The notes under the pieces are model-generated. The model was not told the DNA's origin. It was given only the letters and a program-made list of their open reading frames with translations, and searched no databases. Below are positions 1,591 to 38,626 of a stretch of DNA of 64,000 nucleotides, piece by piece; position 1 is the first letter of the stretch, and each line of letters begins with the position of its first letter. A program made the position numbers and the translations under genes. The stretch comes from Escherichia coli (GTDB lineage Bacteria; Pseudomonadota; Gammaproteobacteria; Enterobacterales; Enterobacteriaceae). The stretch is from assembly GCF_050920415.1 (NCBI RefSeq), contig NZ_CP169309.1. One strand, written 5' to 3'.

Positions 1591-1810
1591 TTGGACCTCT
1601 ACAATAATCAATTACCCCCTCCGACAAAACGCCAATCCCCACGCAGATTGTTAATAAACTGTCAAAATAGCTATTCCAATATCATAAAAATCGGGTATGT
1701 TTTAGCAGAGTATGCTGCTAAAGCACGGGTAGTCATGCATAAAACGAAATAAAGTGCTGAACAACAACATCACAACACACGTAATAACCAGATGAATGGG
1801 GATTCTCAGG

Positions 1811-2914
1811 ATGAATATAAAGGGTAAAGCGTTACTGGCAGGATGTATCGCGCTGGCATTCAGCAATATGGCTCTGGCAGAAGATATTAAAGTCGCGGTC
1901 GTGGGCGCAATGTCAGGTCCGGTGGCCCAGTACGGTGACCAGGAGTTTACTGGCGCAGAGCAGGCGGTTGCGGATATCAATGCTAAAGGTGGTATCAAAG
2001 GCAATAAACTGCAAATCGTAAAATATGACGATGCCTGTGACCCGAAACAGGCGGTCGCGGTGGCGAACAAAGTCGTTAACGACGGCATTAAATATGTGAT
2101 TGGTCACCTCTGCTCTTCATCAACGCAGCCAGCGTCTGACATCTACGAAGACGAAGGCATTTTAATGATCACCCCAGCAGCAACCGCACCAGAGCTGACC
2201 GCCCGTGGCTATCAGCTGATCCTGCGCACCACCGGCCTGGACTCCGACCAGGGACCGACGGCGGCGAAATATATTCTTGAGAAAGTGAAACCGCAACGCA
2301 TTGCTATCGTTCACGACAAACAGCAGTACGGCGAAGGTCTGGCGCGTGCAGTGCAGGACGGCCTGAAGAAAGGCAATGCTAACGTGGTGTTCTTTGACGG
2401 CATCACCGCCGGGGAAAAAGATTTCTCAACGCTGGTGGCGCGTCTGAAAAAAGAGAATATCGACTTCGTTTACTACGGCGGTTATCACCCGGAAATGGGG
2501 CAGATCCTGCGTCAGGCACGCGCGGCAGGGCTGAAAACTCAGTTTATGGGGCCAGAAGGCGTGGCTAACGTCTCGCTGTCTAACATTGCGGGCGAGTCAG
2601 CTGAAGGGTTGCTGGTAACCAAGCCGAAGAACTACGATCAGGTTCCGGCGAACAAACCAATTGTTGACGCGATCAAAGCGAAAAAACAGGACCCAAGCGG
2701 CGCGTTCGTCTGGACCACCTACGCCGCGCTGCAATCTTTGCAGGCGGGCCTGAATCAGTCTGACGATCCGGCTGAAATCGCCAAATACCTGAAAGCGAAC
2801 TCCGTGGATACCGTGATGGGGCCGCTGACCTGGGATGAGAAAGGCGATCTGAAAGGCTTTGAGTTCGGCGTATTTGACTGGCACGCCAACGGCACGGCGA
2901 CCGATGCGAAGTAA
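1811..2914 (+). CDS. livJ: Leu/Ile/Val periplasmic binding protein
   Basis: ORF 1796..2914; the internal Met at 1811 gives [23 protein letters not shown], a signal peptide followed by a LivJ-type binding domain. Confidence 0.93.
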
Positions 2915-2974
2915 TCATTAATCGGCAACTTTGGGTTGCCGCCAAATTGCTAATATCGAGTACGCATGCTTCAT

Positions 2975-3073
<99 letters not shown>

Positions 3074-3114
3074 AATTTCTCGTTGGTCATCACTTTTGAA
3101 ATCAAACTTGACGA

Positions 3115-3498
3115 TTAACGCTTCTCCCAGCCGCCCTGTTGTGCCGTAAACCCCAGCGCCTGCATAAACGCCGTCATCACGCCGCGATCTTCCACGCCTG
3201 CATCCGCCATCCACCAGCCTGAAACGCCAGGATTGTTACGCAAAACCTCTTCCAGCAGATATTGCCCCACACCGCGACGTCGGGTGACTTCCCGCACGCG
3301 CAGGGAATCCAGTGCCCCCTCGGTGCCGTTTAAGGTTACCCGCACGGCCGCGAGCAGGCGCTCGTTAAAACGCGCGGCGTAGATGCGGTGGTTATCGTCA
3401 ACCTGTAAAGAGGAAGGGGAGTACTCCGGCCAGATCTTTTGCAGATCAATCCGGTCCTGGTCGCTAAAGTGTTCTAAACGAATGATGGTCAGCTTCAT
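3115..3498 (-). CDS. panM: PanD maturation factor (GNAT-like), PanM/PanZ
   Basis: 127-aa ORF starting MKLTIIRLEHFSDQDRIDLQKIWPEYSP, recognised as YhhK/PanM; sits between livJ and livK as in E. coli. Confidence 0.88.
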   Translation of the reverse strand: MKLTIIRLEHFSDQDRIDLQKIWPEYSPSSLQVDDNHRIYAARFNERLLAAVRVTLNGTEGALDSLRVREVTRRRGVGQYLLEEVLRNNPGVSGWWMADAGVEDRGVMTAFMQALGFTAQQGGWEKR

Positions 3499-3921
3499 GG
3501 GAAACCCGTGTAAATCACAAAAGTGGAACCAGTGTAGCGAAATAATTTAATCGGAGGCTTTCTCTTTTTTATTTCTTTTGGCAGGTGATTAATTTTTTAA
3601 CAGCAATAATTACAAATTAAAAACATTAGAGAATGAAAAATGTCCAGCATAATCCCCTGAATGGTAGTGAATTATTCCGCCCTTTGTACCGTTATTTTAT
3701 GCTGACAACGGCGCTTTTTTCTGTTTATCTATCAATAAATTCAGAATATTATCTGTTCTTAATCGACTGAAAAATAGGGATTTTAATCGCTATTATCACA
3801 AAACACTGCGCTAAACCCTTAATCAGACAGGCAAAAACAGTGCAGTATAAAAAAAGTACAGTCTGATTTGTTAACACATAAAAACAAAGCAACACAACAT
3901 CACGAATGGGGATTTTTGACT

Positions 3922-9155: not shown

Positions 9156-10472
9156 ATGAAACCGTTACATTATACAGCTTCAGCACTGGCGCTCGGACTG
9201 GCGTTAATGGGGAATGCACAGGCAGTGACGACCATTCCGTTCTGGCATTCTATGGAAGGGGAACTGGGTAAAGAGGTGGATTCTCTGGCCCAACGTTTTA
9301 ACGCCGAAAACCCGGATTACAAAATTGTACCGACCTATAAAGGCAACTACGAACAGAATTTAAGTGCGGGGATTGCCGCATTTCGTACCGGCAACGCGCC
9401 TGCTATTTTGCAGGTTTATGAAGTTGGCACCGCCACCATGATGGCGTCGAAAGCCATTAAACCGGTGTATGACGTGTTTAAAGAGGCGGGGATTCAATTC
9501 GATGAGTCGCAGTTTGTGCCGACGGTTTCAGGTTACTACTCCGACAGCAAAACCGGTCACTTACTCTCCCAGCCGTTCAACAGCTCGACTCCCGTTCTCT
9601 ATTACAACAAAGACGCCTTCAAGAAAGCGGGGTTAGACCCGGAACAGCCGCCGAAAACCTGGCAGGATCTGGCAGACTATGCCGCGAAACTGAAAGCCTC
9701 TGGTATGAAGTGCGGCTACGCCAGCGGCTGGCAGGGCTGGATCCAACTGGAAAACTTTAGCGCCTGGAACGGTCTGCCGTTTGCCAGCAAAAACAACGGC
9801 TTTGACGGCACGGACGCGGTGCTTGAGTTCAACAAGCCGGAGCAGGTGAAACACATCGCCATGCTCGAAGAGATGAACAAGAAGGGCGATTTCAGTTACG
9901 TAGGGCGTAAGGATGAATCTACCGAGAAGTTCTATAACGGTGATTGCGCGATGACGACCGCCTCTTCGGGTTCTCTTGCCAACATTCGCGAGTACGCCAA
10001 ATTCAACTACGGCGTAGGCATGATGCCATACGACGCCGACGCGAAAGATGCGCCACAAAACGCCATTATCGGCGGAGCCAGCCTGTGGGTGATGCAGGGC
10101 AAAGATAAAGAAACTTACACCGGCGTGGCGAAGTTCCTCGACTTCCTCGCGAAGCCAGAAAACGCTGCCGAGTGGCATCAGAAAACCGGTTATCTGCCAA
10201 TCACCAAAGCGGCGTATGACCTGACCCGTGAGCAGGGCTTTTACGAGAAAAACCCAGGGGCGGATACCGCGACGCGTCAGATGCTGAACAAGCCGCCGTT
10301 GCCGTTCACCAAAGGGCTGCGTCTGGGCAATATGCCGCAGATCCGCGTGATTGTGGATGAAGAGCTGGAAAGCGTGTGGACCGGTAAGAAGACGCCACAG
10401 CAGGCGCTGGATACCGCTGTTGAGCGTGGGAACCAGTTACTGCGCCGCTTTGAGAAATCTACGAAGTCTTAA
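9156..10472 (+). CDS. ugpB: sn-glycerol-3-phosphate ABC transporter periplasmic binding protein
   Basis: 438-aa ORF with signal peptide [23 protein letters not shown]; recognised as UgpB. Confidence 0.95.
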
Positions 10473-10518
10473 CCAGTGAAATGTCGGATGCGTTTCGCTT
10501 ATCTGACCTGGCATCGCG

Positions 10519-10548
10519 TGTAGGCCGGATAAGCGAAGCGCATCCGGC
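10519..10548. repeat. REP element
   Basis: gtaggccggataagcgaagcgcatccggca between ugpB and ugpA. Confidence 0.7.
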
Positions 10549-10569
10549 ACAGTTCAGGAATTAACCGTA

Positions 10570-11457
10570 ATGTCATCATCCCGTCCGGTGTTCCGCTCGC
10601 GCTGGCTGCCTTATTTGCTGGTCGCGCCGCAGCTTATCATCACCGTTATCTTTTTTATCTGGCCTGCGGGCGAAGCGTTGTGGTACTCGCTACAAAGCGT
10701 CGATCCGTTTGGCTTTTCCAGCCAGTTTGTCGGCCTGGATAACTTCGTCACGCTGTTTCATGACAGCTACTATCTCGACTCCTTCTGGACGACGATAAAA
10801 TTCAGCACCTTTGTCACGGTCAGCGGTTTGCTGGTGTCGCTGTTCTTCGCGGCGCTGGTGGAGTATATCGTGCGCGGCAGCCGTTTCTATCAAACCTTAA
10901 TGCTGCTGCCGTATGCCGTGGCTCCCGCCGTTGCCGCCGTATTGTGGATCTTCCTGTTTAACCCTGGTCGCGGGCTGATCACTCATTTTCTCGCTGAGTT
11001 CGGCTACGACTGGAACCATGCGCAAAACAGCGGTCAGGCAATGTTCCTGGTGGTGTTTGCCTCAGTATGGAAGCAAATCAGCTACAACTTTCTGTTCTTC
11101 TATGCCGCGCTGCAATCCATTCCCCGTTCGTTGATTGAAGCCGCAGCCATCGACGGTGCAGGCCCGATTCGCCGCTTCTTTAAGATTGCGCTGCCGCTTA
11201 TCGCCCCGGTGAGCTTCTTCCTGCTGGTGGTGAACCTGGTGTACGCCTTCTTCGATACCTTCCCGGTGATCGACGCCGCCACGTCCGGCGGGCCAGTACA
11301 GGCCACCACGACGCTGATTTATAAGATCTACCGCGAAGGCTTTACCGGACTGGATTTGGCTTCATCTGCCGCGCAGTCGGTGGTGTTGATGTTCCTCGTC
11401 ATCGTGCTGACGGTGGTGCAGTTCCGCTATGTTGAAAGCAAGGTGCGTTACCAATGA
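10570..11457 (+). CDS. ugpA: sn-glycerol-3-phosphate ABC transporter permease
   Basis: 295-aa multi-TM ORF, recognised as UgpA. Confidence 0.95.
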
Positions 11458-12299
11458 TTGAGAACCGTCCGTGGCTGACAATATTCAGCCATACCATGCT
11501 GATCCTCGGGATCGCGGTGATCCTCTTCCCGCTGTACGTGGCGTTTGTCGCGGCGACGCTGGATAAACAGGCCGTCTACGCCGCGCCGATGACGCTCATC
11601 CCCGGCACGCATCTGCTGGAAAATATCCACAACATCTGGGTGAACGGGGTAGGCACAAATAGCGCGCCGTTCTGGCGGATGTTGCTTAACAGCTTCGTGA
11701 TGGCGTTCAGCATTACGCTCGGCAAAATTACCGTCTCGATGCTCTCGGCATTTGCCATTGTCTGGTTTCGTTTTCCGCTGCGTAACCTCTTCTTCTGGAT
11801 GATTTTTATCACCCTTATGCTGCCGGTTGAAGTGCGTATCTTCCCGACAGTAGAAGTCATCGCCAACCTGAAAATGCTTGACAGCTACGCTGGTTTAACG
11901 CTGCCGCTGATGGCCTCTGCGACCGCTACTTTCTTGTTCCGCCAGTTCTTTATGACGCTGCCGGATGAGCTGGTGGAAGCGGCGCGGATCGACGGTGCAT
12001 CACCAATGCGTTTCTTTTGCGACATCGTTTTTCCGCTGTCGAAAACCAATCTGGCGGCGCTGTTTGTGATCACTTTTATTTACGGCTGGAACCAGTATTT
12101 GTGGCCGTTGTTGATTATTACCGATGTTGATCTCGGCACCACCGTGGCAGGAATCAAAGGGATGATCGCTACAGGCGAAGGCACCACGGAATGGAATTCG
12201 GTGATGGCGGCGATGTTGTTAACGCTTATCCCTCCGGTGGTGATTGTTTTAGTGATGCAGCGTGCCTTCGTGCGCGGCCTGGTCGATAGTGAGAAATAA
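11454..12299 (+). CDS. ugpE: sn-glycerol-3-phosphate ABC transporter permease
   Basis: 281-aa multi-TM ORF overlapping the ugpA stop; recognised as UgpE. Confidence 0.95.
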
Positions 12300-12300
12300 G

Positions 12301-13371
12301 ATGGCAGGACTGAAATTACAGGCAGTAACCAAAAGCTGGGATGGCAAAACCCAGGTCATTAAACCGCTGACCCTTGATGTGGCGGATGGCGAATTTATCG
12401 TGATGGTCGGGCCGTCTGGCTGCGGGAAATCCACGCTGCTGCGCATGGTTGCCGGGCTGGAGCGGGTCACCGAAGGCGATATCTGGATTAACGACCAACG
12501 CGTGACCGAAATGGAGCCGAAAGATCGCGGGATTGCGATGGTGTTCCAGAACTACGCGCTTTATCCGCATATGAGTGTCGAAGAAAACATGGCGTGGGGG
12601 CTGAAAATTCGCGGCATGGGCAAGCAACAAATTGCCGAGCGTGTTAAAGAAGCGGCGCGCATTCTGGAGCTGGACGACCTGCTCAAGCGCCGTCCGCGTG
12701 AGCTTTCTGGCGGTCAGCGTCAGCGTGTAGCGATGGGCCGCGCGATTGTGCGCGATCCGGCGGTGTTCCTGTTTGATGAGCCGCTCTCTAACCTCGATGC
12801 CAAGCTGCGCGTGCAGATGCGCCTTGAGCTGCAACAACTGCACCGTCGCCTGAAAACGACTTCACTCTACGTTACTCACGATCAGGTTGAGGCGATGACG
12901 CTCGCTCAGCGGGTTATGGTGATGAACGGCGGCGTTGCCGAACAGATTGGCACGCCAGTTGAAGTCTACGAAAAGCCCGCCACTCTGTTTGTGGCGAGTT
13001 TTATCGGCAGTCCGGCGATGAACCTGCTGACAGGCCGCGTGAATAACGAAGGCACGCATTTCGAACTGGATGGCGGTATCGCGCTACCGCTAAACGGTGG
13101 CTACCGTCAGTATGCCGGGCGTAAAATGACTCTTGGCATTCGCCCGGAACATATTGCGTTAAGCTCGCAGGCAGAAGGCGGCATACCGCTGGTGATGGAC
13201 ACGCTGGAGATCCTCGGCGCAGATAACCTGGCGCACGGACGCTGGGGCGAACAGAAGCTGGTGGTGCGACTGGCGCATCAGGAGCGCCCGACGACAGGCA
13301 GCACGCTGTGGCTGCATCTGCCGGAAAATCAGCTGCATCTTTTTGATGGTGAAACAGGACAACGAGTATGA
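12301..13371 (+). CDS. ugpC: sn-glycerol-3-phosphate ABC transporter ATPase
   Basis: Internal start [13 protein letters not shown] within ORF 12262..13371; Walker [10 protein letters not shown]; 356 aa. Confidence 0.93.
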
Positions 13372-14111
13372 GTAACTGGCCTTATCCCCGCATCGTCGCC
13401 CACCGTGGCGGCGGTAAACTGGCCCCGGAAAACACCCTGGCGGCAATCGACGTTGGGGCAAAATACGGTCATAAGATGATCGAATTTGACGCGAAGTTAT
13501 CGAAAGATGGTGAGATCTTCCTGCTTCATGACGACAATCTCGAACGCACCAGCAACGGCTGGGGCGTCGCGGGCGATCTGAACTGGCAGGATTTACTGCG
13601 CGTGGATGCAGGCAGTTGGTACAGCAAAGCGTTTAAAGGTGAGCCGCTGCCGTTGCTTTCGCAGGTGGCGGAACGCTGCCGTGAACATGGGATGATGGCA
13701 AATATTGAAATCAAACCCACCACTGGCACTGGTCCATTAACGGGCAAAATGGTATCGCTGGCGGCGCGCGAACTGTGGGCTGGTATGACGCCGCCGCTGC
13801 TGTCATCGTTTGAGATTGATGCTTTAGAAGCCGCACACCAGGCTGCACCGGAACTGCCGCGCGGTTTGTTGCTGGATGAGTGGCGCGACGACTGGCGCGA
13901 ACTGACCACGCGGCTGGGCTGCGTCTCTATTCATCTCAATCATAAGTTGCTCGATAAAGCGCGAGTGATGCAGTTGAAAGACGCTGGATTACGGATTCTG
14001 GTTTATACCGTCAACAAACCCCAGCGTGCGGCAGAGTTGCTGCGCTGGGGCGTGGATTGCATCTGTACCGATGCGATTGATGTGATTGGCCCGAACTTTA
14101 CGGCCCAATAG
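13368..14111 (+). CDS. ugpQ: Glycerophosphodiester phosphodiesterase (cytoplasmic)
   Basis: 247-aa ORF starting [16 protein letters not shown], the GDPD-family motif; overlaps the ugpC stop. Confidence 0.95.
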
Positions 14112-14538
14112 TTTTCAACGGAATATCAGGCTGCGGCGTGCTGGGCTGATTCAGCATGTCGCCGTTTCTCCTCTCCGGCAACATATGCTGCTGATTCAAC
14201 GAACTATCCGGATTACGGTTGCTGTTTAACATCCCGCCGTTGGTGTTGGGCAGCATTTGCTGCCGGGCGGGATTTAGCTCCCCCGGCTGTGACTGCAATA
14301 CCCGCTGCGAGTTGCTATTAAGCTGATTTTCTAAATGCTGCTGTTGTAATTGCGTCTGAGTTTTCAGTTGCTGATTCAGCATCCCTTTTTGCTGGATTTG
14401 CTGCGTTTGCATTTGAGTTTGCATCCGCTGCTGGCTGGGGATCTGATACCCCGGCTGGTTAGGGTTGTTCAGAGTATTAATGGGCTGTGCAAAGCCGACA
14501 AAAGGCAGGAGTGCCGTCAAAAGCAGAAGTCGTTTCAT
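14098..14538 (-). CDS. yhhA: Secreted Gln-rich protein YhhA (DUF2756)
   Basis: 146-aa ORF with signal peptide [17 protein letters not shown] and a Q-rich low-complexity body; convergent with ugpQ. Confidence 0.85.
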
Positions 14539-14657
14539 CGCGTATCCTCCTCTGAAGATATTCTTTAAGTTTACTCCTTTCCTGCAATCATCAGGATTAA
14601 TTCAGAGTTATATACCAGGCTTAGCTGGGGTTGCCCCTTAATCTCTGGAGTATAACG

Positions 14658-16403
14658 ATGATAAAACCGACGTTTTTACGCCGGGTGGCTATTGCTGCTC
14701 TGCTCACAGGAAGTTGTTTTAGTGCTGTCGCCGCGCCACCTGCGCCGCCGCCAGTCTCGTATGGCGTGGAGGAGGATGTCTTCCATCCGGTACGCGCGAA
14801 GCAGGGGATGGTAGCATCTGTGGACGCCACTGCCACTCAGGTGGGGGTAGATATCCTTAAGCAGGGCGGGAATGCCGTTGATGCTGCCGTGGCAGTGGGC
14901 TACGCGCTGGCGGTAACACATCCGCAGGCAGGGAATCTGGGCGGCGGCGGTTTTATGCTGATCCGCACTAAAGATGGCAATACCACCGCCATCGATTTCC
15001 GCGAAATGGCACCCGCCAAAGCGACCCGCGATATGTTCCTTGATGATCAGGGCAACCCGGACAGCAAAAAATCTCTCACTTCGCATCTTGCTTCTGGCAC
15101 ACCCGGTACGGTAGCGGGCTTCTCGTTGGCGCTGGAGAAATACGGCACCATGCCGCTGAACAAAGTTGTGCAGCCTGCGTTTAAACTGGCACGCGATGGT
15201 TTTATCGTTAACGATGCGCTGGCAGACGATCTCAAAACCTACGGCAGTGAAGTGCTACCAAATCACGAAAACAGCAAAGCTATCTTCTGGAAAGAGGGCG
15301 AACCGCTGAAAAAGGGCGACAAGCTGGTACAGACGAATCTGGCAAAGAGCCTGGAGATGATTGCCGAAAACGGCCCGGATGAATTCTACAAAGGCACGAT
15401 AGCGGAACAGATCGCCCTGGAGATGCAGAAAAACGGTGGCTTGATCACTAAAGAAGATTTAGCGGCCTATAAAGCGGTCGAACGTACACCAATAAGTGGC
15501 GATTATCGCGGGTATCAGATTTACTCCATGCCACCGCCATCCTCCGGCGGGATCCATATCGTACAGATCCTCAATATTCTGGAAAACTTCGATATGCAGA
15601 AATACGGCTTTGGCAGCGCCGATGCGATGCAAATCATGGCAGAAGCGGAGAAATACGCCTACGCCGACCGCTCGGAATATCTTGGCGACCCGGATTTTGT
15701 CAAAGTACCGTGGCAGGCGCTGACCAATAAAGCCTATGCCAAATCTATTGCTGATCAAATCGATATCAATAAAGCGAAGCCATCCAGCGAAATTCGCCCC
15801 GGCAAGCTTGCGCCTTATGAGAGTAATCAAACTACCCATTACTCTGTAGTGGATAAAGACGGTAACGCGGTGGCGGTGACCTATACGCTGAACACCACCT
15901 TCGGTACGGGTATTGTCGCGGGTGAGAGCGGTATTCTGCTTAATAATCAGATGGATGATTTCTCCGCCAAACCGGGCGTACCGAACGTTTACGGGCTGGT
16001 GGGTGGTGATGCTAACGCTGTCGGGCCGAATAAACGCCCGCTGTCGTCGATGTCACCAACCATTGTGGTCAAGGATGGTAAAACCTGGCTGGTCACCGGA
16101 AGCCCAGGTGGTAGCCGGATTATCACCACTGTGCTGCAAATGGTGGTGAACAGCATCGATTATGGCATGAATGTCGCCGAAGCGACCAATGCGCCGCGTT
16201 TCCACCATCAGTGGTTGCCGGACGAGCTGCGTGTCGAGAAAGGATTTAGCCCGGATACGCTCAAGCTGCTGGAAGCAAAAGGTCAGAAAGTGGCGCTAAA
16301 AGAGGCGATGGGCAGTACACAAAGCATTATGGTTGGGCCGGACGGCGAATTGTATGGCGCTTCCGACCCACGTTCGGTAGATGATTTAACGGCGGGGTAT
16401 TAA
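14658..16403 (+). CDS. ggt: Gamma-glutamyltranspeptidase
   Basis: Internal start MIKPTFLRRVAIAALLTGS within ORF 14631..16403; recognised as periplasmic GGT with the Thr-autoprocessing region. Confidence 0.95.
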   Translation: MIKPTFLRRVAIAALLTGSCFSAVAAPPAPPPVSYGVEEDVFHPVRAKQGMVASVDATATQVGVDILKQGGNAVDAAVAVGYALAVTHPQAGNLGGGGFMLIRTKDGNTTAIDFREMAPAKATRDMFLDDQGNPDSKKSLTSHLASGTPGTVAGFSLALEKYGTMPLNKVVQPAFKLARDGFIVNDALADDLKTYGSEVLPNHENSKAIFWKEGEPLKKGDKLVQTNLAKSLEMIAENGPDEFYKGTIAEQIALEMQKNGGLITKEDLAAYKAVERTPISGDYRGYQIYSMPPPSSGGIHIVQILNILENFDMQKYGFGSADAMQIMAEAEKYAYADRSEYLGDPDFVKVPWQALTNKAYAKSIADQIDINKAKPSSEIRPGKLAPYESNQTTHYSVVDKDGNAVAVTYTLNTTFGTGIVAGESGILLNNQMDDFSAKPGVPNVYGLVGGDANAVGPNKRPLSSMSPTIVVKDGKTWLVTGSPGGSRIITTVLQMVVNSIDYGMNVAEATNAPRFHHQWLPDELRVEKGFSPDTLKLLEAKGQKVALKEAMGSTQSIMVGPDGELYGASDPRSVDDLTAGY

Positions 16404-16410
16404 TATCTTA

Positions 16411-16440
16411 AGCCCTCTCCCGGTAGGTGAGGGCTTTTAG
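16411..16440 (+). terminator. Rho-independent terminator after ggt
   Basis: Hairpin agccctctcccggtaggtgagggct followed by ttt. Confidence 0.6.
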
Positions 16441-16452
16441 ATTACAAATTCT

Positions 16453-16941
16453 CTATTTCACCCGCGCCATATAATACGCATCGACATATTCGCCATTACG
16501 AAAAGCGTAATTTTTGCCGGTACCTTCTATGAGAAATCCGAATTTTTTATAGACTGCGATTGCCGGGGCGTTATCCGCAAACACCGTCAACTCAATACGA
16601 TCTATCCGTAACCAGTTGTCGCACATTTCAATCAATTCGCGGATCAGGGCGCTGGCGATGCCACGGTTGTGCCAGCGGGAGTCAACACAGATACCAAAAG
16701 TTGCAACATGACTGCGACGTGGGCCTTGATAAGCTTCCACGAAAAGATGACCCACCACGATACTATCAATGCAGGCAACCAGTTGTTTAAATCCCTGGCG
16801 ATCTTTCAATCTTTCTGGCCACCAGCCTTCCGAAGGATGAGGTAGTTGTAGCGTGTTGTAATACACCTCCGGCTGGGCGTGAATTTGCCTGATGGCCTCG
16901 TAATCCCGTGTTTCTGCGTGGCGTATTACTATCTCACTCAT
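16453..16941 (-). CDS. yhhY: GNAT family N-acetyltransferase
   Basis: Internal start MSEIVIRHAETRDYEAIRQIH within ORF 16453..17019; 162 aa; recognised as YhhY. Confidence 0.88.
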   Translation of the reverse strand: MSEIVIRHAETRDYEAIRQIHAQPEVYYNTLQLPHPSEGWWPERLKDRQGFKQLVACIDSIVVGHLFVEAYQGPRRSHVATFGICVDSRWHNRGIASALIRELIEMCDNWLRIDRIELTVFADNAPAIAVYKKFGFLIEGTGKNYAFRNGEYVDAYYMARVK

Positions 16942-17035
16942 TCCTTTGTCCTCTTTGGGGTAAATGTCCCTTTCAACATCATTGACTTTCAAATGCGAGT
17001 CAAATGCATTTTTTTGCAAAAAGTGTTGGACAAGT

Positions 17036-17058
17036 GCGAATGAGAATGATTATTATTG
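17036..17058 (+). promoter_or_regulatory. Fur box overlapping the ryhB promoter
   Basis: gcgaatgagaatgattattattg resembles the Fur consensus gataatgataatcattatc, immediately 5' of ryhB. Confidence 0.6.
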
Positions 17059-17062
17059 TCTC

Positions 17063-17152
17063 GCGATCAGGAAGACCCTCGCGGAGAACCTGAAAGCACG
17101 ACATTGCTCACATTGCTTCCAGTATTACTTAGCCAGCCGGGTGCTGGCTTTT
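17063..17152 (+). ncRNA. ryhB: RyhB small RNA (iron-sparing, Fur-repressed)
   Basis: gcgatcaggaagaccctcgcggagaacctgaaagcacgacattgctcacattgcttccagtattacttagccagccgggtgctggctttt recognised as RyhB, with intrinsic terminator hairpin gccagccgggtgctggc plus T-run; lies between yhhY and yhhX as in E. coli. Confidence 0.92.
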
Positions 17153-17274
17153 TTTTTGATCTTTCGTTTTCAATTTATCCACGGGAAGTGCTTGTGATCG
17201 TTATGCGCACTCCAGTAGGAACCACGTCCGCTTTGCGCTAAGGTGTAAATAATCACCTTAAAAAGGACGAAATC

Positions 17275-18312
17275 ATGGTCATCAACTGCGCCTTTATTGG
17301 CTTCGGCAAAAGCACCACCCGTTACCATCTGCCGTATGTACTTAACCGCAAGGATAGCTGGCATGTCGCGCATATTTTTCGCCGCCATGCGAAGCCGGAA
17401 GAACAGGCCCCCATTTACTCTCATATCCATTTCACCAGCGATCTCGACGAAGTACTAAACGATCCCGATGTTAAGCTGGTTGTTGTCTGCACCCATGCGG
17501 ACAGCCACTTCGAGTACGCGAAGCGCGCGCTGGAGGCTGGGAAAAATGTGCTGGTCGAAAAACCGTTTACTCCGACGCTTGCCCAGGCGAAAGAACTTTT
17601 TGCGCTGGCGAAAAGTAAAGGGCTGACCGTCACGCCGTATCAGAATCGTCGCTTTGATTCCTGTTTTCTGACGGCGAAAAAAGCGATTGAAAGCGGCAAG
17701 CTGGGAGAGATTGTTGAAGTGGAAAGCCATTTTGACTATTACCGCCCAGTGGCAGAAACCAAACCTGGACTGCCGCAGGATGGCGCGTTCTATGGCCTTG
17801 GTGTGCATACGATGGACCAGATTATCTCGCTGTTCGGTCGCCCGGATCACGTCGCTTATGACATCCGCAGCCTGCGTAATAAAGCCAATCCTGACGACAC
17901 CTTTGAAGCGCAGCTATTTTATGGCGATCTAAAAGCCATCGTCAAAACCAGCCATCTGGTGAAAATCGATTATCCGAAATTTATCGTTCATGGGAAGAAA
18001 GGTTCGTTTATTAAATACGGTATCGACCAGCAGGAAACCAGCCTGAAGGCTAACATTATGCCCGGCGAACCGGGATTCGCGGCGGATGATTCGGTCGGTG
18101 TGCTGGAGTATGTCAATGACGAGGGCGTGACGGTCAGAGAAGAGATGAAGCCAGAGATGGGCGATTACGGACGCGTTTATGATGCGTTGTACCAAACCAT
18201 CACCAGCGGGGCGCCAAATTACGTCAAGGAATCTGAAGTTCTTACCAATCTGGAAATCCTTGAACGCGGTTTTGAGCAAGCCTCTCCCTCCACAGTGACT
18301 CTTGCGAAGTAA
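17275..18312 (+). CDS. yhhX: Gfo/Idh/MocA-family NAD(P)-dependent oxidoreductase
   Basis: 345-aa ORF starting MVINCAFIGFGKSTTRYHLPYV, recognised as YhhX. Confidence 0.9.
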   Translation: MVINCAFIGFGKSTTRYHLPYVLNRKDSWHVAHIFRRHAKPEEQAPIYSHIHFTSDLDEVLNDPDVKLVVVCTHADSHFEYAKRALEAGKNVLVEKPFTPTLAQAKELFALAKSKGLTVTPYQNRRFDSCFLTAKKAIESGKLGEIVEVESHFDYYRPVAETKPGLPQDGAFYGLGVHTMDQIISLFGRPDHVAYDIRSLRNKANPDDTFEAQLFYGDLKAIVKTSHLVKIDYPKFIVHGKKGSFIKYGIDQQETSLKANIMPGEPGFAADDSVGVLEYVNDEGVTVREEMKPEMGDYGRVYDALYQTITSGAPNYVKESEVLTNLEILERGFEQASPSTVTLAK

Positions 18313-18434
18313 GTTTGATGACCTCTCGAATAGTTCAATTTTTTTGAACAGAGGGGTCAATTTTCACCCTCTATCATCCCAGGCGGATCGGGTCCACACT
18401 AAGCCCATCGAAATCATTCAGGGGGCGAATACAA

Positions 18435-19130
18435 ATGATCTACTTACGCAAAGCAAATGAACGTGGTCATGCAAATCATGGCTGGCTGGACTCCTGGCAT
18501 ACTTTCTCTTTTGCCAACTATTACGACCCGAACTTTATGGGCTTCTCCGCGCTGCGCGTGATTAACGACGACGTGATTGAAGCAGGGCAGGGCTTCGGCA
18601 CTCACCCGCATAAAGATATGGAAATTTTGACCTACGTGCTGGAAGGTACTGTTGAGCATCAGGACAGCATGGGCAATAAAGAGCAGGTTCCGGCGGGCGA
18701 GTTCCAGATTATGAGTGCGGGTACGGGTATTCGTCACTCAGAGTACAACCCAAGCAGCACCGAGCGTCTGCATCTGTATCAGATCTGGATCATGCCAGAA
18801 GAAAACGGTATTACGCCGCGTTATGAACAGCGTCGCTTTGATGCCGTACAGGGCAAACAACTGGTGCTCTCGCCGGATGCGCGTGATGGTTCATTGAAAG
18901 TGTATCAGGATATGGAACTGTACCGCTGGGCGCTGGTAAAAGATGAGCAGTCGGTGCATCAGATTGCCGCTGAACGCCGCGTCTGGATTCAGGTAGTGAA
19001 AGGTAATGTCACCATTAACGGCGTAAAAGCTTCGACCAGCGATGGTCTGGCAATCTGGGATGAGCAGGCAATCTCCATCCACGCTGACAGCGACAGCGAA
19101 GTGTTACTGTTCGATCTGCCTCCGGTTTAA
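18435..19130 (+). CDS. yhhW: Pirin-like quercetin 2,3-dioxygenase
   Basis: 231-aa cupin ORF with His-rich metal-site motifs (GFGTHPHKDME); recognised as YhhW. Confidence 0.9.
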   Translation: MIYLRKANERGHANHGWLDSWHTFSFANYYDPNFMGFSALRVINDDVIEAGQGFGTHPHKDMEILTYVLEGTVEHQDSMGNKEQVPAGEFQIMSAGTGIRHSEYNPSSTERLHLYQIWIMPEENGITPRYEQRRFDAVQGKQLVLSPDARDGSLKVYQDMELYRWALVKDEQSVHQIAAERRVWIQVVKGNVTINGVKASTSDGLAIWDEQAISIHADSDSEVLLFDLPPV

Positions 19131-19353
19131 AACTTAACGGCATTTTTGAAGCCTGCCTTTTTGCGGGCTTCATCGCTCGCCCCGGTCGCGTGCTGATGTA
19201 CGCGACCGGGGTTTTGTCGCGTCTTTAGCACAATGCGATGCAATTGATTTAGTGTATATCTAATAATTATAAACAAGCACTGTTTTCTCCGGGAAGGTTC
19301 TGATGCGTCCGTGTTAAACTAAGAGAATCTATCTCTTTTGTACCTTCAGGACG

Positions 19354-20349
19354 ATGAAAAAGAAAAGACCCGTACTTCAGGATGTGGCTGACCGTGTTGG
19401 CGTGACCAAAATGACGGTCAGCCGTTTTTTACGCAACCCGGAGCAGGTTTCCGTCGCTCTACGTGGCAAGATTGCCGCCGCTCTTGATGAACTGGGTTAT
19501 ATTCCCAATCGCGCACCCGATATCCTCTCTAACGCCACCAGCCGGGCGATTGGAGTCCTGTTACCTTCACTCACCAACCAGGTTTTCGCTGAAGTATTAC
19601 GCGGTATCGAAAGCGTCACGGACGCACACGGTTATCAGACGATGCTGGCGCACTACGGTTATAAACCGGAAATGGAGCAAGAACGCCTCGAATCAATGCT
19701 TTCCTGGAATATCGACGGACTTATTCTCACCGAACGTACCCACACGCCCCGCACCTTAAAGATGATTGAAGTAGCGGGTATTCCGGTGGTGGAGCTGATG
19801 GACAGTAAGTCGCCGTGCCTCGATATCGCCGTCGGTTTTGATAACTTTGAAGCGGCACGCCAGATGACCACCGCCATTATTGCTCGCGGGCATTGTCACA
19901 TTGCCTATCTCGGCGCACGCCTCGACGAACGTACTATCATCAAACAGAAGGGATATGAGCAGGCGATGCTGGATGCAGGCCTGGTGCCGTATAGCGTGAT
20001 GGTCGAGCAATCTTCTTCTTACTCTTCCGGTATTGAACTGATTCGCCAGGCGCGGCGGGAATATCCGCAGTTGGATGGCGTATTTTGTACTAATGATGAC
20101 CTGGCGGTCGGCGCGGCGTTTGAATGTCAGCGTCTGGGGCTGAAAGTTCCTGACGATATGGCGATTGCCGGTTTCCACGGTCATGACATTGGTCAGGTGA
20201 TGGAGCCACGGCTGGCGAGCGTGCTGACGCCGCGTGAGCGGATGGGCAGCATTGGCGCTGAGCGCCTGCTGGCGCGTATTCGTGGCGAATCTGTGACACC
20301 GAAAATGTTAGATTTAGGTTTCACCTTGTCACCGGGCGGATCTATTTAA
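19354..20349 (+). CDS. gntR: Gluconate repressor (LacI family)
   Basis: 331-aa ORF with N-terminal HTH (VTLQDVADRVGVTKMTVSRFL); recognised as GntR. Confidence 0.93.
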   Translation: MKKKRPVLQDVADRVGVTKMTVSRFLRNPEQVSVALRGKIAAALDELGYIPNRAPDILSNATSRAIGVLLPSLTNQVFAEVLRGIESVTDAHGYQTMLAHYGYKPEMEQERLESMLSWNIDGLILTERTHTPRTLKMIEVAGIPVVELMDSKSPCLDIAVGFDNFEAARQMTTAIIARGHCHIAYLGARLDERTIIKQKGYEQAMLDAGLVPYSVMVEQSSSYSSGIELIRQARREYPQLDGVFCTNDDLAVGAAFECQRLGLKVPDDMAIAGFHGHDIGQVMEPRLASVLTPRERMGSIGAERLLARIRGESVTPKMLDLGFTLSPGGSI

Positions 20350-20426
20350 GCTCACAAATTTGAAGTAGCTCACACTTATACACTTAAGGCACGGATGGAT
20401 ATTGCTTCTGTTTTTGTCCGGCTGGA

Positions 20427-20458
20427 CAATGTTACCGATAACAGTTACCCGTAACATT
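20427..20458 (+). promoter_or_regulatory. GntR operator sites in the gntKU promoter
   Basis: aatgttaccgataacag and ttacccgtaacatt (palindromic ATGTTAC..GTAACAT-type half-sites) just upstream of gntK. Confidence 0.6.
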
Positions 20459-20488
20459 TTCTGATTCTTGTATTGTGGGGGCACCACT

Positions 20489-21016
20489 TTGAGCACGACT
20501 AACCATGATCACCACATTTACGTCTTGATGGGCGTATCGGGCAGCGGCAAATCTGCAGTCGCCAGTGAAGTGGCGCATCAACTTCATGCCGCGTTTCTTG
20601 ATGGCGATTTCCTCCATCCGCGCTGCAATATCGAAAAAATGGCGTCTGGCGAACCGCTGAACGACGACGATCGCAAACCATGGTTACAGGCGCTTAACGA
20701 CGCCGCGTTTGCCATGCAGCGCACCAATAAAGTGTCGCTGATCGTCTGTTCTGCACTGAAAAAGCACTATCGCGACCTGCTGCGTGAAGGTAATCCGAAT
20801 CTCTCTTTCATCTACCTGAAAGGCGATTTTGATGTAATTGAAAGCCGTCTGAAAGCGCGCAAAGGCCATTTCTTTAAAACCCAAATGCTGGTGACGCAGT
20901 TTGAAACGCTGCAGGAGCCGGGTGCGGACGAAACCGATGTACTGGTGGTGGATATCGATCAACCGCTGGAAGGTGTTGTGGCAAGCACCATTGAGGTTAT
21001 TAATAAAGGCAAATAA
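20489..21016 (+). CDS. gntK: Thermoresistant gluconokinase
   Basis: ORF 20468..21016; product recognised from STTNHDHHIYVLMGVSGSGKSAV (P-loop); apparent TTG start at 20489; 175 aa. Confidence 0.9.
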   Translation: MSTTNHDHHIYVLMGVSGSGKSAVASEVAHQLHAAFLDGDFLHPRCNIEKMASGEPLNDDDRKPWLQALNDAAFAMQRTNKVSLIVCSALKKHYRDLLREGNPNLSFIYLKGDFDVIESRLKARKGHFFKTQMLVTQFETLQEPGADETDVLVVDIDQPLEGVVASTIEVINKGK

Positions 21017-21019
21017 GTA

Positions 21020-22354
21020 GTGACTACATTAACGCTTGTTTTAACAGCAGTAGGGTCTGTTTTACTGCTGCTGTTTTTAGTCATGAAGGCGCGTATGCAC
21101 GCTTTCCTGGCTTTGATGGTGGTGTCTATGGGGGCTGGCCTTTTTTCCGGTATGCCGCTCGATAAAATCGCAGCGACGATGGAAAAAGGGATGGGAGGCA
21201 CCCTCGGCTTCCTGGCGGTAGTTGTCGCCCTGGGAGCCATGTTTGGCAAGATCTTACATGAAACCGGCGCAGTCGATCAGATTGCCGTCAAAATGCTCAA
21301 ATCCTTCGGTCACAGTCGTGCGCATTATGCCATTGGCCTTGCGGGTCTGGTCTGTGCGCTACCGCTGTTCTTTGGAGTGGCGATTGTTCTGCTGATTAGC
21401 GTTGCTTTCTCAATGGCGCGCCACACCGGTACGAACCTGGTGAAACTGGTAATCCCATTATTCGCAGGCGTGGCGGCAGCGGCGGCGTTCCTGGTGCCGG
21501 GGCCTGCGCCAATGCTATTGGCATCGCAGATGAACGCTGACTTTGGCTGGATGATCCTGATTGGCCTGTGTGCGGCAATCCCGGGAATGATTATTGCCGG
21601 GCCGCTGTGGGGTAATTTCATCAGCCGCTACGTGGAGCTGCATATTCCTGACGATATCAGCGAACCGCATCTCGGCGAAGGCAAAATGCCGTCCTTCGGA
21701 TTCAGCCTGTCGCTGATCCTGCTGCCGCTGGTGGGGCTGAAAACCATTGCCGCGCGTTTTGTGCCGGAAGGCTCTACCGCTTACGAATGGTTCGAGTTTA
21801 TCGGTCATCCGTTTACCGCAATTCTGGTCGCTTGCCTGGTAGCAATTTACGGCCTGGCGATGCGTCAGGGTATGCCGAAAGACAAAGTGATGGAGATTTG
21901 CGGTCACGCGCTGCAACCGGCGGGGATTATTCTGCTGGTGATTGGTGCAGGCGGCGTGTTCAAACAGGTGCTGGTTGACTCTGGCGTAGGTCCGGCGCTG
22001 GGCGAAGCGTTAACCGGCATGGGCCTGCCGATTGCCATCACCTGCTTCGTGCTGGCAGCTGCAGTGCGCATCATTCAGGGTTCTGCCACCGTTGCCTGTT
22101 TAACGGCGGTAGGACTGGTGATGCCGGTTATTGAACAACTGAACTACTCCGGTGCGCAAATGGCGGCGCTGTCGATTTGTATCGCCGGTGGTTCGATTGT
22201 TGTCAGCCACGTTAACGACGCCGGTTTCTGGTTGTTCGGTAAATTTACCGGCGCGACCGAAGCCGAAACGCTGAAAACCTGGACCATGATGGAAACCATC
22301 CTCGGCACCGTTGGTGCCATCGTCGGGATGATTGCGTTCCAGCTGTTGAGTTAA
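21020..22354 (+). CDS. gntU: Low-affinity gluconate transporter (GntP family)
   Basis: 444-aa multi-TM ORF with a GTG start 4 bp after the gntK stop; recognised as GntU. Confidence 0.9.
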   Translation: MTTLTLVLTAVGSVLLLLFLVMKARMHAFLALMVVSMGAGLFSGMPLDKIAATMEKGMGGTLGFLAVVVALGAMFGKILHETGAVDQIAVKMLKSFGHSRAHYAIGLAGLVCALPLFFGVAIVLLISVAFSMARHTGTNLVKLVIPLFAGVAAAAAFLVPGPAPMLLASQMNADFGWMILIGLCAAIPGMIIAGPLWGNFISRYVELHIPDDISEPHLGEGKMPSFGFSLSLILLPLVGLKTIAARFVPEGSTAYEWFEFIGHPFTAILVACLVAIYGLAMRQGMPKDKVMEICGHALQPAGIILLVIGAGGVFKQVLVDSGVGPALGEALTGMGLPIAITCFVLAAAVRIIQGSATVACLTAVGLVMPVIEQLNYSGAQMAALSICIAGGSIVVSHVNDAGFWLFGKFTGATEAETLKTWTMMETILGTVGAIVGMIAFQLLS

Positions 22355-22410
22355 GTTTGTTCGCCCGGTAGTTGTGACGCTACCGGGCTCTTTTCGAAAA
22401 ACTCTCCTCG

Positions 22411-23004
22411 TTACCCCTTCATCCACATTCGAATGCCGTCAAGGAACATCTGAGTTGCCATCATCACCAGAATCAATCCCATCAGGCGTTCAAGTGCATT
22501 CACCCCTTTCTCGCCCAGCAGACGTAAAAATAGCGAAGACTGTAGCAGGATGACAAAGGTGCCACCCCAGGCCAGCAGCAGAGCAATTACCAGATGTCCC
22601 ATCTGATTCGGGTACTGATGAGACAGCAACATCAGCGTGGCGAGAATAGTCGGCCCGGCGACTAACGGAATTGCCAACGGCACGATAAACGGCTCTTCAC
22701 CTGCCGGAAGCCCGCTGCTATTTCCTGAAGCACTGGGGAAAATCATCTTAATGGCGATCAGAAACAGAATGATGCCGCCAGAAATGGAGACGGTTTCTGC
22801 CCGCAGGCTAAGAAATGCCAGAATTTTCTCACCCGCAAACAGGAACACCAGCATCACCAGGAGAGCAATAAGCAACTCTCGCACCATGATTGCCCGCCGT
22901 CTTTTCGGTTCAGTATGTTTCAGTACGGACATGAAAATAGGTAGGTTTCCGAGCGGATCCATAATCAGGATCAATAAAACTGCTGCAGAAATGATTTCAT
23001 TCAT
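22411..23004 (-). CDS. yhgN: MarC-family inner membrane protein
   Basis: 197-aa multi-TM ORF starting MNEIISAAVLLILIMDPLGNLPIF, recognised as YhgN. Confidence 0.9.
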   Translation of the reverse strand: MNEIISAAVLLILIMDPLGNLPIFMSVLKHTEPKRRRAIMVRELLIALLVMLVFLFAGEKILAFLSLRAETVSISGGIILFLIAIKMIFPSASGNSSGLPAGEEPFIVPLAIPLVAGPTILATLMLLSHQYPNQMGHLVIALLLAWGGTFVILLQSSLFLRLLGEKGVNALERLMGLILVMMATQMFLDGIRMWMKG

Positions 23005-23196
23005 AACTCAAATTCCCTGATAATTGCCGCGGACTTTCTGCGTGCTAACAAAGCAGGATAAGTCGCATTACTGATGGCTTCGCTATCATTGATTAATTTC
23101 ACTTGCGACTTTGGCTGCTTTTTGTATGGTGAAAGATGTGCCACGAGGAGACCGGCACATTTATACAGCACACATCTTTGCAGGAAAAAAACGCTT

Positions 23197-24300
23197 ATGA
23201 AAAATGTTGGTTTTATCGGCTGGCGCGGTATGGTCGGCTCCGTTCTCATGCAACGCATGGTTGAAGAGCGCGACTTCGACGCCATTCGCCCTGTCTTCTT
23301 TTCTACTTCTCAGCTTGGTCAGGCTGCGCCGTCTTTTGGCGGAACCACTGACACACTTCAGGATGCCTTTGATCTGGAGGCGCTAAAGGCCCTCGATATC
23401 ATTGTGACCTGTCAGGGCGGCGATTATACCAACGAAATCTATCCAAAGCTTCGTGAAAGCGGATGGCAAGGTTACTGGATTGACGCAGCATCATCTCTGC
23501 GCATGAAAGATGACGCCATCATCATTCTTGACCCCGTCAATCAGGACGTCATTACCGACGGATTAAATAATGGCATCAGGACTTTTGTTGGCGGTAACTG
23601 TACCGTAAGCCTGATGTTGATGTCGTTGGGTGGTTTATTCGCCAATGATCTTGTTGATTGGGTGTCCGTTGCAACCTACCAGGCCGCTTCCGGCGGTGGT
23701 GCGCGACATATGCGTGAGTTATTAACCCAGATGGGCCATCTGTATGGCCATGTGGCAGATGAACTCGCGACCCCGTCCTCTGCTATTCTCGATATCGAAC
23801 GCAAAGTCACAACTTTAACCCGTAGCGGTGAGCTGCCGGTGGATAACTTTGGCGTGCCGCTGGCAGGAAGTCTGATTCCGTGGATCGACAAACAGCTCGA
23901 TAACGGTCAGAGCCGCGAAGAATGGAAAGGGCAGGCGGAAACTAACAAGATCCTCAACACATCTTCCGTAATTCCGGTAGATGGTTTATGTGTGCGTGTC
24001 GGGGCATTGCGCTGCCACAGCCAGGCATTCACTATTAAATTGAAAAAAGATGTGTCTATTCCGACCGTGGAAGAACTGCTGGCTGCGCACAACCCGTGGG
24101 CGAAAGTCGTTCCGAACGATCGGGAAATCACTATGCGTGAGCTAACCCCAGCTGCCGTTACCGGCACGCTGACCACGCCGGTAGGCCGCCTGCGTAAGCT
24201 GAATATGGGACCGGAGTTCCTGTCAGCCTTTACCGTGGGCGACCAGCTGCTGTGGGGGGCCGCGGAGCCGCTGCGTCGGATGCTTCGTCAACTGGCGTAA
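23197..24300 (+). CDS. asd: Aspartate-semialdehyde dehydrogenase
   Basis: Internal start [21 protein letters not shown] within ORF 23074..24300; 367 aa; recognised as Asd. Confidence 0.95.
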
Positions 24301-34058: not shown

Positions 34059-35576
34059 ATGGAAAGAATAATGCAAAACAAAAAATGGATTTTGACCTCG
34101 CTGGTAATGGCTTTTTTCGGCATCCCCATACTGGCGCAATTTTTGGCAGCGGTTATTGCCATGCTGGGGGCCGGGCTTGCCGCTATTCTTGAGGCTTGCA
34201 ATTTACTCTTTACGCCAACAATTTATCTTCTACTCAACGTCTTTATGCTGACGCTGGGGGCGATAATCCTATTTTTCTCTGGTCGCGTGTGGGCCGGTGA
34301 TAGCGCACCAGAAAACAGAGAAATAGCCGTCTGGCGGCAATGCTTTTTTCTTTTACCTGCACTGTTAACTCTGGTTGGCTGGATAATCACGCTACATCTG
34401 GCAGATTATCAATTTCGCCAAATGGGAGCAGGTTGGTTGGCAGAGCTTATGCTCCCCTGGCTGGGAGTTTTGTTAGTCTCATTAGTCGGAGGTGAGTTCT
34501 GGTGGATAGTCATTATACCCGTTGGTGCGCATATTAGTTTTTCACTGGGGTATGGCTGGCCGACCAGATATCCTTTAACCGGCACGTACGGGTTACGTTG
34601 CCGTAATTCCCTCCTGTTTATCCTTCTCATGCTTGGTTTTATCGCTGGTTATCAGGCTTATTTATATAAACAGATTAATCCCGGCGTCGGTGTGCGTGAA
34701 AATATTGATATCTGGGCCTGGCGACCCGATAAACTCAATAATCAACTGCCGCCACTGCGTGGTAAACCGCAAATTCAGTTTACACAAAACTGGCCGCGAC
34801 TCGATGGTGCTACAGCGGCGTACCCAATTTATGCTTCTGCCTTTTATGCGTTGAGCGTTATACCGGAAGATTTCCACACTTGGGAATATCTGGAGAACTC
34901 TCGTACCCCCGATGCATATAACAGGATTGTTAAAGGTGATGCCGATATTATTTTTGTGGCGCAACCTTCCGGTGGGCAGAAAAAACGCGCAGAGGAATCG
35001 GGCGTCACTTTGAACTACACTCCTTTCGCCCGTGAAGCATTCGTTTTCATCGTCAATGCGGATAACCCGGTTAATTCCCTGACTGACCAACAGGTGCGTG
35101 ACATCTTCAGTGGCGCAATTACCAACTGGCGCACGGTTGGCGGTAACGATCAGGAGATCCAGACCTGGCAACGCCCGGAAGACTCTGGCAGCCAGACAGT
35201 GATGCAATCGCAGGTCATGAAAAATGTCCGCATGATCTCGCCGCAGGAAACCGAAGTGGCAAGCATGATGGAGGGAATGATTAAAGTTGTTGCCGAATAC
35301 CGTAATACAAACAACTCAATAGGCTACACCTTCCGCTATTACGCAACACAAATGAACGCCGATAAAAATATAAAACTGCTAGCTATTAACGGTATTGCAC
35401 CGACTGCGGAAAATATTCGTAACGGCAAATATCCGTATATCGTCGATGCCTTTATGGTAACGCGGGAAAATACTACGTCAGAAACACAAAAACTGGTCGA
35501 ATGGTTTTTAACGCCGCAGGGGCAGAGTCTGGTGGAAGATGTGGGTTATGTACCGTTGCATACAACAATGAAATAA
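34059..35576 (+). CDS. Uncharacterized membrane protein: N-terminal polytopic membrane domain fused to a C-terminal PstS/PBP-like substrate-binding domain
   Basis: 505-aa ORF; residues ~1-200 are hydrophobic multi-TM; the C-terminal half (DGATAAYPIYASAFYAL...IIFVAQPSGGQKKRAEESG...WQRPEDSGSQTVM) looks like a phosphate-binding-protein (PstS-like) fold; no equivalent intact gene recalled at this position in K-12 (where the yzgL pseudogene sits); start may instead be the Met at 34071. Confidence 0.7.
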   Translation: MERIMQNKKWILTSLVMAFFGIPILAQFLAAVIAMLGAGLAAILEACNLLFTPTIYLLLNVFMLTLGAIILFFSGRVWAGDSAPENREIAVWRQCFFLLPALLTLVGWIITLHLADYQFRQMGAGWLAELMLPWLGVLLVSLVGGEFWWIVIIPVGAHISFSLGYGWPTRYPLTGTYGLRCRNSLLFILLMLGFIAGYQAYLYKQINPGVGVRENIDIWAWRPDKLNNQLPPLRGKPQIQFTQNWPRLDGATAAYPIYASAFYALSVIPEDFHTWEYLENSRTPDAYNRIVKGDADIIFVAQPSGGQKKRAEESGVTLNYTPFAREAFVFIVNADNPVNSLTDQQVRDIFSGAITNWRTVGGNDQEIQTWQRPEDSGSQTVMQSQVMKNVRMISPQETEVASMMEGMIKVVAEYRNTNNSIGYTFRYYATQMNADKNIKLLAINGIAPTAENIRNGKYPYIVDAFMVTRENTTSETQKLVEWFLTPQGQSLVEDVGYVPLHTTMK

Positions 35577-35601
35577 CTTTTGAGAGAACGGAATCAGCGC
35601 G

Positions 35602-37247: not shown

Positions 37248-38626
<1,379 letters not shown>

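Follow-up and report, generated by a model that had tools for sequence, protein, structure and literature searches.

An empty and probably ancestral ggt-yhhY junction beside a divergent yhhY allele in Escherichia coli

The window analysed here is a stretch of 64,000 nucleotides of Escherichia coli DNA, in which an intact ggt gene encoding gamma-glutamyltransferase (14658..16403, + strand, 581-codon ORF) faces an intact yhhY gene encoding a GNAT N-acetyltransferase (16453..16941, − strand, 162-codon ORF, 162 aa). The two genes form the left and right flanks of a convergent junction. According to the ORF list and the RefSeq annotation of the 100%-identical genome NZ_CP169399.1, the ggt stop codon TAA lies at 16401-16403, and the yhhY stop codon TAG reads CTA on the + strand at 16453-16455. 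The gap between these stop codons (16404-16452) is exactly 49 bp long, TATCTTAAGCCCTCTCCCGGTAGGTGAGGGCTTTTAGATTACAAATTCT, as an earlier reading of this DNA made from the letters alone (the sequence-only reading) had stated. The ggt gene shares 93.9% nucleotide identity with its K-12 counterpart, and YhhY (RefSeq WP_001355005.1) matches the Pfam family Acetyltransf_1 (E 1.9e-16).

The gap contains a single hairpin (16410..16438), which consists of a stem (16410-16420 / 16426-16436), the loop CGGTA and, on the ggt strand, a TTTT run at 16435-16438. The letters of 16410-16436 are AAGCCCTC-T-CC / CGGTA / GG-T-GAGGGCTT, and the 3' stem arm ends in the first two T of the run. Folding was predicted at -20.9 kcal/mol for the + strand and -18.5 kcal/mol for the − strand (z -3.1 and -3.4, respectively), a stability that none of 200 shuffled spacers matched, so the hairpin noticed in the earlier reading is present and stable on both strands. 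Based on its position and stability, it is presumed to serve both genes as a terminator, one on each strand; most likely it terminates ggt, and yhhY less efficiently. A GC-rich stem-loop after the stop codon, as expected of an intrinsic terminator, is in place, while a U run (at least 5 T in the 8 nt directly after the stem) was found on neither strand, the tail being only TTTT on the + strand and the T-poor TTAAGATA on the − strand. With only 4 T after the stem, the hairpin was left uncalled by a consensus terminator scan, and in the 60-bp ancestral spacer described below the tail is poorer still (CTTAA). Like the bidirectional intrinsic terminators found between convergent genes, the junction has one GC-rich hairpin stable on both strands, offset by 6 nt from the ggt stop and by 16 nt from the yhhY stop; unlike them, it has a short U-tract on the ggt strand (4 T) and a poor one on the yhhY strand. 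The only match of the terminator scan, at 17131-17149, was the terminator of the small RNA RyhB.

In K-12 MG1655, 3,454 bp separate the two genes, and the order is yhhY (3581138-3581626), yhhZ, yrhA split by IS1E, yrhD, yrhB and ggt (from 3585081). The sequence-only reading had placed yhhZ, yrhA, IS1 and yrhB between yhhY and ggt in K-12, which is correct apart from the omission of yrhD, and the case that it had named against itself, adjacency of yhhY and ggt in K-12 as well, does not apply. Comparison of window positions 13000-20500 with K-12 (blastn) gave two collinear blocks of 94.2% and 94.3% identity, and this alignment, which had been proposed as a check, shows homology ending exactly at the ggt stop codon and restarting exactly at the yhhY stop codon; even the final sense codons, like the stop codon of yhhY, are not the same in the window and in K-12. 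The sole likeness of the K-12 insert to the 49-bp spacer is the ggt-proximal hairpin core (GCCCTCTTCGTGGGAAGAGGGC). Its arms, GCCCTCT / AGAGGGC, are as far from the ggt stop in genomes with an occupied site as they are in the window, and they were all that a short-word blastn search recovered of the ancestral spacer from occupied loci. No cassette protein, cassette DNA or IS1 was detected within the 64-kb window by tblastn and blastn (nothing below E = 0.05).

The segment missing from the window is an already known accessory toxin-immunity islet. The yhhZ-yrhAB segment has been described as genomic island Gist34 (PMC3309015). According to previous studies, YhhZ is an "evolved Hcp" with a degenerate HNH domain (PMC2907695) and a T6SS effector of His-Me finger group 32 (PMC5714182); Hcp-HNH fusions are T6SS-delivered DNase effectors, and YhhZ was placed alongside the Hcp-ET1 HNH-DNase effectors (PMC6730261). 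In strain MB06234, YhhZ matches PF05638 (T6SS_HCP, E 1.6e-11) over residues 27-139, and its HNH match over residues 322-343 is weak (17.4 bits, under the cutoff of 21.4). YhhZ accordingly has the architecture of Hcp-ET or evolved Hcp proteins, an N-terminal Hcp fused to a C-terminal toxin domain, with the HNH part below threshold. YrhB belongs to the Imm35 family (E 4e-23). Its gene is not immediately downstream of yhhZ; the gene that overlaps the yhhZ stop codon is yrhA, and neither YrhA nor YrhD has a Pfam match. The K-12 islet yhhZ-yrhA-yrhD-yrhB, which is of the type that pairs an orphan evolved-Hcp effector with putative immunity genes, occupies exactly this site, for which the window has the pre-insertion allele.

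Junction- and cargo-specific probes were run on 5,426 complete E. coli genomes, of which 5,425 match the flanks; the collection is a biased sample, so the percentages that follow are not population frequencies. The site is empty in 985 of the 5,426 genomes (18%), a count obtained identically from two overlapping probes. The yhhZ-yrhA-yrhD-yrhB cassette, at a coverage of at least 80% and including copies with IS1, IS3 or IS421, is found in 3,758 of 5,426 (~69%), and cassette remnants, such as yrhB alone in IH5 or IS1-truncated copies, in a further 336 (~6%). An O157-type cassette with a DUF4225 gene is present in 343 genomes, mostly O157:H7 and O55:H7. These four states add up to 5,422 of the 5,425 flank-matching genomes. 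A higher figure of 1,238 "adjacent" genomes was rejected as a count of empty sites, as that search joined pieces up to ~1 kb apart and took in small-insert forms such as the IS1 case MB53. In MB53 (NZ_CP073939.1), which has an empty site, an IS1A at 2113-2810 lies in the 3' part of yhhY and truncates the gene, and IS1 therefore strikes this neighbourhood independently of the K-12 cassette.

The O157-type cargo, seen in O157:H7 Z1833 (1803-3657) and also in O55:H7, is a different AT-rich segment of 1.86 kb with one DUF4225 gene and ~730 bp without an annotated gene adjoining ggt. Only the first 36 nt past the ggt stop are common to this cassette and the K-12-type cassette. A RecQ-helicase/DprA islet was considered as a fifth cargo type and rejected, because its place within the 14-kb segment around the junction is outside the ggt-yhhY interval. 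This islet, with a RecQ-family helicase and DprA on ~3.3 kb, is carried by many E. coli in the region homologous to window positions 9400-23400 (e.g., NZ_CP015834.1, NZ_CP195976.1 and O157:H7 genomes) and is absent from the window.

The GC contents of the cassettes (33.7% and 31.7%) are far from the 52.3% of the window. The annotated cargo (tssD/yhhZ, yrhA, yrhD and yrhB, or the DUF4225 protein) includes no integrase or recombinase, and the Pfam matches on it are limited to Hcp, HNH (weak), Imm35 and DUF4225. At the boundaries of the occupied locus, a search for direct repeats returned only short AT-rich chance matches. Both hallmarks of integrase-type islands, a recombinase and flanking direct repeats, are thus lacking. 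Five occupied sequences (K-12, MB06234, H9, IH5 and O157) were compared base by base. The 30 nt nearest to ggt, GGTTAGCGGCCCTCTTxGTGGGAAGAGGGC, are present in all five, with a single mismatch in H9 and none in the other four, and the sequences diverge on the yhhY side. The same ggt-side junction in all five suggests a single insertion just past the ggt hairpin, which would have been followed by replacement or truncation of the cargo.

The ggt-yhhY site is a real multi-allelic variable spot. Variable "hotspot" intervals between core genes of E. coli hold alternative small cargo without integrases. The present site resembles them in its four structural alleles, AT-rich cargo, IS insertions and conserved flanks, but differs in its small repertoire (two unrelated cassettes plus remnants) and its one ggt-side junction, and it looks like the outcome of a few insertions followed by recombinational shuffling rather than of repeated capture of new DNA. 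The description of this point as a recombination hotspot in the sequence-only reading therefore holds in part: four structural states, several IS insertions and an adjacent yhhY that contains the most divergent 500 bp of the window speak for it, while the single ggt-side junction of the occupied forms and the lack of scars or repeats in the window do not. No paper describing the ggt-yhhY interval as a hotspot was found in the literature.

The polarity of these states was read from outgroups. One genome per species (GTDB representatives) was scanned with the window YhhY, which gave 40 loci, 38 of them in Enterobacteriaceae. The yhhY and ggt matches are convergent with their ends 45-98 nt apart in 33 of these 38 loci (tblastn), including those of E. 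albertii, E. whittamii, Escherichia sp. E1V33 and the divergent "E. coli" E69 and SCPM-O-B-8794, as well as Citrobacter, Enterobacter, Lelliottia, Pluralibacter, Huaxiibacter and Klebsiella. Larger gaps occur in Franconibacter pulveris, one Pluralibacter MAG, one mislabelled contig and a disrupted Leclercia locus, and one short contig carries no ggt. In Franconibacter pulveris, ~2.9 kb (~9486-12352) lies between yhhY and ggt, and the interval may be used independently outside Escherichia.

Twelve outgroup loci, among them those of E. albertii, E. whittamii, other Escherichia, Citrobacter, Enterobacter, Klebsiella, Lelliottia and Pluralibacter, were compared base by base; ggt and yhhY are adjacent and convergent in them, with spacers of 36-122 bp. 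A 60-bp spacer with the hairpin of the window is common to E69, E1V33, E. coli 042 and MS6198 (consensus TATCTTAAGCCCTCT(C/T)CCGGTAGGTGAGGGCTTAA...GATT(G/A)CAAAT(T/C)CT), and the spacer of E. albertii is 62 bp long, with identical stem arms and a different loop and first bases. The window spacer is collinear with the outgroup spacers, base for base, apart from an 11-bp gap, which argues for a shortened ancestral spacer and against a deletion scar. The missing bases, AA(G/A)TGAC(A/C)AAC, map to 16436..16437, where the deletion was placed by eye in an alignment of the 49-bp and 60-bp spacers, and their loss results in the TTTT after the stem. The 49-bp form is found in the window, EC42405 and MFDS1022581, and the 60-bp form in 042, MS6198, MB53, E69 and E1V33. 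Judging from these outgroups, the empty ggt-yhhY junction is the ancestral arrangement, and the window would have lost nothing. The K-12 segment had been called absent here; read as a loss, that wording is at odds with the empty arrangement common to the 12 outgroup loci and with the collinear spacers.

It is highly unlikely that the 49-bp spacer is instead the scar of a cassette deleted in place, whether by an IS1-mediated adjacent deletion or by site-specific excision. IS1 does lie inside the cassette in K-12 and many other strains and also in yhhY of MB53, IS1-truncated remnants exist (e.g., in 1916D6), and the window spacer lacks 11 bp of the usual empty form. Against this, apart from that 11-bp gap, the spacer is collinear with outgroup spacers that never held the cassette, the ggt hairpin and junction of the occupied type are absent from the window, the cassette encodes no recombinase, and the window holds no remnant of an IS, of cassette DNA or of a cassette protein. 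The scars or repeats that the earlier reading had proposed to look for did not appear: a repeat search over 16300-16560 found no direct repeats at the junction and one 16-nt inverted pair in the coding flanks, which is irrelevant to it, and the spacer itself contains no scar, repeat or IS remnant. An artefact, in which a collapsed or mis-joined assembly created the adjacency of ggt and yhhY, has next to no probability, and nothing was found in its favour: MFDS1022581 and EC42405, two complete genomes assembled independently of each other, have identical 49-bp junctions, the 1,051-bp span is seen again in RMDEC465, and the empty arrangement recurs in all the empty-site genomes counted above.

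The whole window aligns to K-12 in four collinear blocks of 94.7-96.4% identity. For the 14-kb segment around the junction, identity was 94.9-95.4% in 58 of 58 other chromosomes of an evenly spaced sample of 60 rows, in which the remaining row was a 1% plasmid match. Over the 5,426 genomes, 4,721 fall at 95-99% identity to this segment and only one reaches at least 99%, namely NZ_CP169399.1 of strain MFDS1022581 (food, Korea), at 100%. Next in closeness at the junction come EC42405 and RMDEC465, each 97.3% identical. EC42405 is among the completely sequenced strains of cryptic clade I (PMC10100065). Because this close relative is a published clade I strain, the window probably comes from a deep-branching lineage, either Escherichia cryptic clade I or a neighbouring deep branch. 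It is this divergence, and not the empty site, that sets the window apart from K-12. The assignment to a non-K-12 lineage in the sequence-only reading is confirmed by the identity of the window to K-12, but the emptiness on which it was partly based is no lineage marker, being found in 18% of the genomes.

The yhhY gene adjoining the junction is a recombination mosaic. It contains a tract (16483..16870, − strand), termed class B here, in which ~22% of the nucleotides differ from K-12, as they do from all other Escherichia yhhY alleles examined. Mismatches amount to 2-13 per 30 bp in the tract and 0-5 per 30 bp in its flanks, and compared with K-12 they drop to 0-1 per 30 bp from 16873 through the yhhY 5' end and RyhB; the 30 bp of yhhY next to the spacer have no mismatches with MS6198. 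A conserved block (16873-17165), nearly invariant across Escherichia, bounds the variable region on the yhhY side and includes the RyhB sRNA (17092..17156, + strand; Rfam RF00057, 83.1 bits, E 8e-16), which lies between yhhY and yhhX. Relative to K-12, divergence along the window peaks at 18.2% in the 500-bp bin 16501-17000, and all other bins lie at 0.4-12%. YhhY of the window shares 82% of amino acids and 80.6% of nucleotides with K-12 and is equally far from E. albertii, E. whittamii and other Escherichia, whereas nucleotide identity among the class A alleles is 90-96%.

In the class B tract, dS is ~1.0-1.1 and dN/dS is 0.14; for comparison, dS is 0.32 between K-12 and E. albertii and 1.3-1.65 between K-12 and Lelliottia or Citrobacter. 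These values indicate an old divergence under purifying selection and not a recent adaptive burst. Positive selection as the sole cause was rejected, given a dS of ~1, near saturation, together with the low dN/dS. The class B allele (at least 90% identity) occurs in ~160 of 5,426 genomes, including 042 and APEC O2-211. A probe joining the empty spacer to class B yhhY matched 163 genomes and the tract probe matched 160-165; therefore, essentially all class B genomes have an empty site. The class B sequences of the window and 042 share 95.7% of nucleotides (4.3% different), which is similar to the genome-wide distance, so the class A/B dimorphism probably dates back to the split of the window and 042 lineages. 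Outside E. coli, no candidate donor above 83% amino acid identity was found among 100,044 species representatives (GTDB scan). Among 5.8 billion protein clusters, no named match above 83% came from outside E. coli; the clusters above that value comprised two full-length E. coli proteins (96% and 93%) and two partial proteins without an organism name (97% and 92%), and the next stood at 83%.

Deeply divergent alleles of core genes are known to adjoin variable loci, such as gnd beside the O-antigen cluster. Class B yhhY resembles gnd-type alleles in its sharp tract boundaries, its dS of ~1 with a dN/dS of 0.14 and its complete linkage to one structural state; unlike them, it has no identifiable donor lineage. 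As a speculation to which we give rather little credence, the tract may be an ancient allele under balancing selection, or an import from an unsampled enterobacterial lineage, that alters the substrate range of YhhY, and its linkage to the empty site may reflect a functional trade-off in which a strain has either the cassette or the alternative YhhY. In another reading, the linkage would reflect mere physical proximity. YhhY may have a link to aminoacyl-nucleotide antibiotics, which played no part in this analysis. A literature search on YhhY function returned only mentions in strain lists, and the PDB holds no YhhY structure, the best match being PA1377 (E 1e-31). The class B allele is the only mildly unexpected result of this work and may be of some interest to studies of recombination and balancing selection on E. 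coli core genes.

The divergent tract also bears on how the window came to be empty. Its position raises an alternative, unlikely in our judgement, that the lineage once carried the cassette and became secondarily empty when a donor segment with an empty site, reaching from the 3' part of ggt through yhhY, replaced it and imported the spacer together with the class B tract. The most divergent 500 bp of the window do lie directly beside the junction, the boundaries of the tract are sharp (~16483 and 16870), and class B yhhY is confined to empty-site genomes. Moreover, ggt is also more divergent (93.9% against 96.3% for yhhX-yhhW), and the window yhhY is 99.4% identical to that of EC42405, compared with 96-97.6% for the flanks. 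However, all outgroups and the deep Escherichia lineages are empty, so no loss is needed. The tract stops ~30 bp inside yhhY, and class A genomes, MS6198 among them, have the same type of spacer, so spacer and tract do not form a single inseparable import. In addition, the class B distance between the window and 042, close to the genome-wide distance, fits old co-inheritance.

We therefore consider it very probable that the 49-bp interval is the unoccupied ancestral ggt/yhhY junction, into which a cassette was inserted later in most E. coli. Under this reading, an AT-rich cassette would have entered just past the ggt hairpin in an ancestor of most E. coli sensu stricto, replacing the rest of the spacer and bringing in the orphan T6SS effector YhhZ (Hcp plus an HNH-like nuclease), YrhA, YrhD and the Imm35-family YrhB. 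The cassette would since have spread, been swapped and truncated, and been struck by IS elements, and its exchange between strains would most likely rely on homologous recombination within the flanking ggt and yhhY-ryhB sequences. The lineage of the window would never have received the cassette, or would have kept or re-received the ancestral allele, and its local peculiarities would be limited to the 11-bp spacer deletion and the rare, very old yhhY allele. Retention of the empty site by vertical descent and its re-acquisition by recombination may both fit the comparisons made here; the mosaic yhhY shows that recombination has acted beside the junction, which counts against the reading favoured here.

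The empty junction amounts to an ordinary difference between strains that is largely known already, with nothing mechanistically new, and matters little alone. The description of four states of the ggt/yhhY site over 5,426 genomes, with their polarity, is usable as a typing marker, and the site offers a worked example of a toxin-immunity islet without an integrase.

Another difference from K-12 in the window lies between glgP and glpD, where ~4.3 kb (~34293-38597) have no K-12 counterpart. In matching genomes, this insert carries two genes for PstS-family phosphate-binding proteins, a hypothetical gene and a transposase gene of IS621 (IS110-like). At least 80% of it is covered in only 3 of the 5,426 genomes, and MFDS1022581, otherwise identical to the window, has an additional IS3 in this insert.
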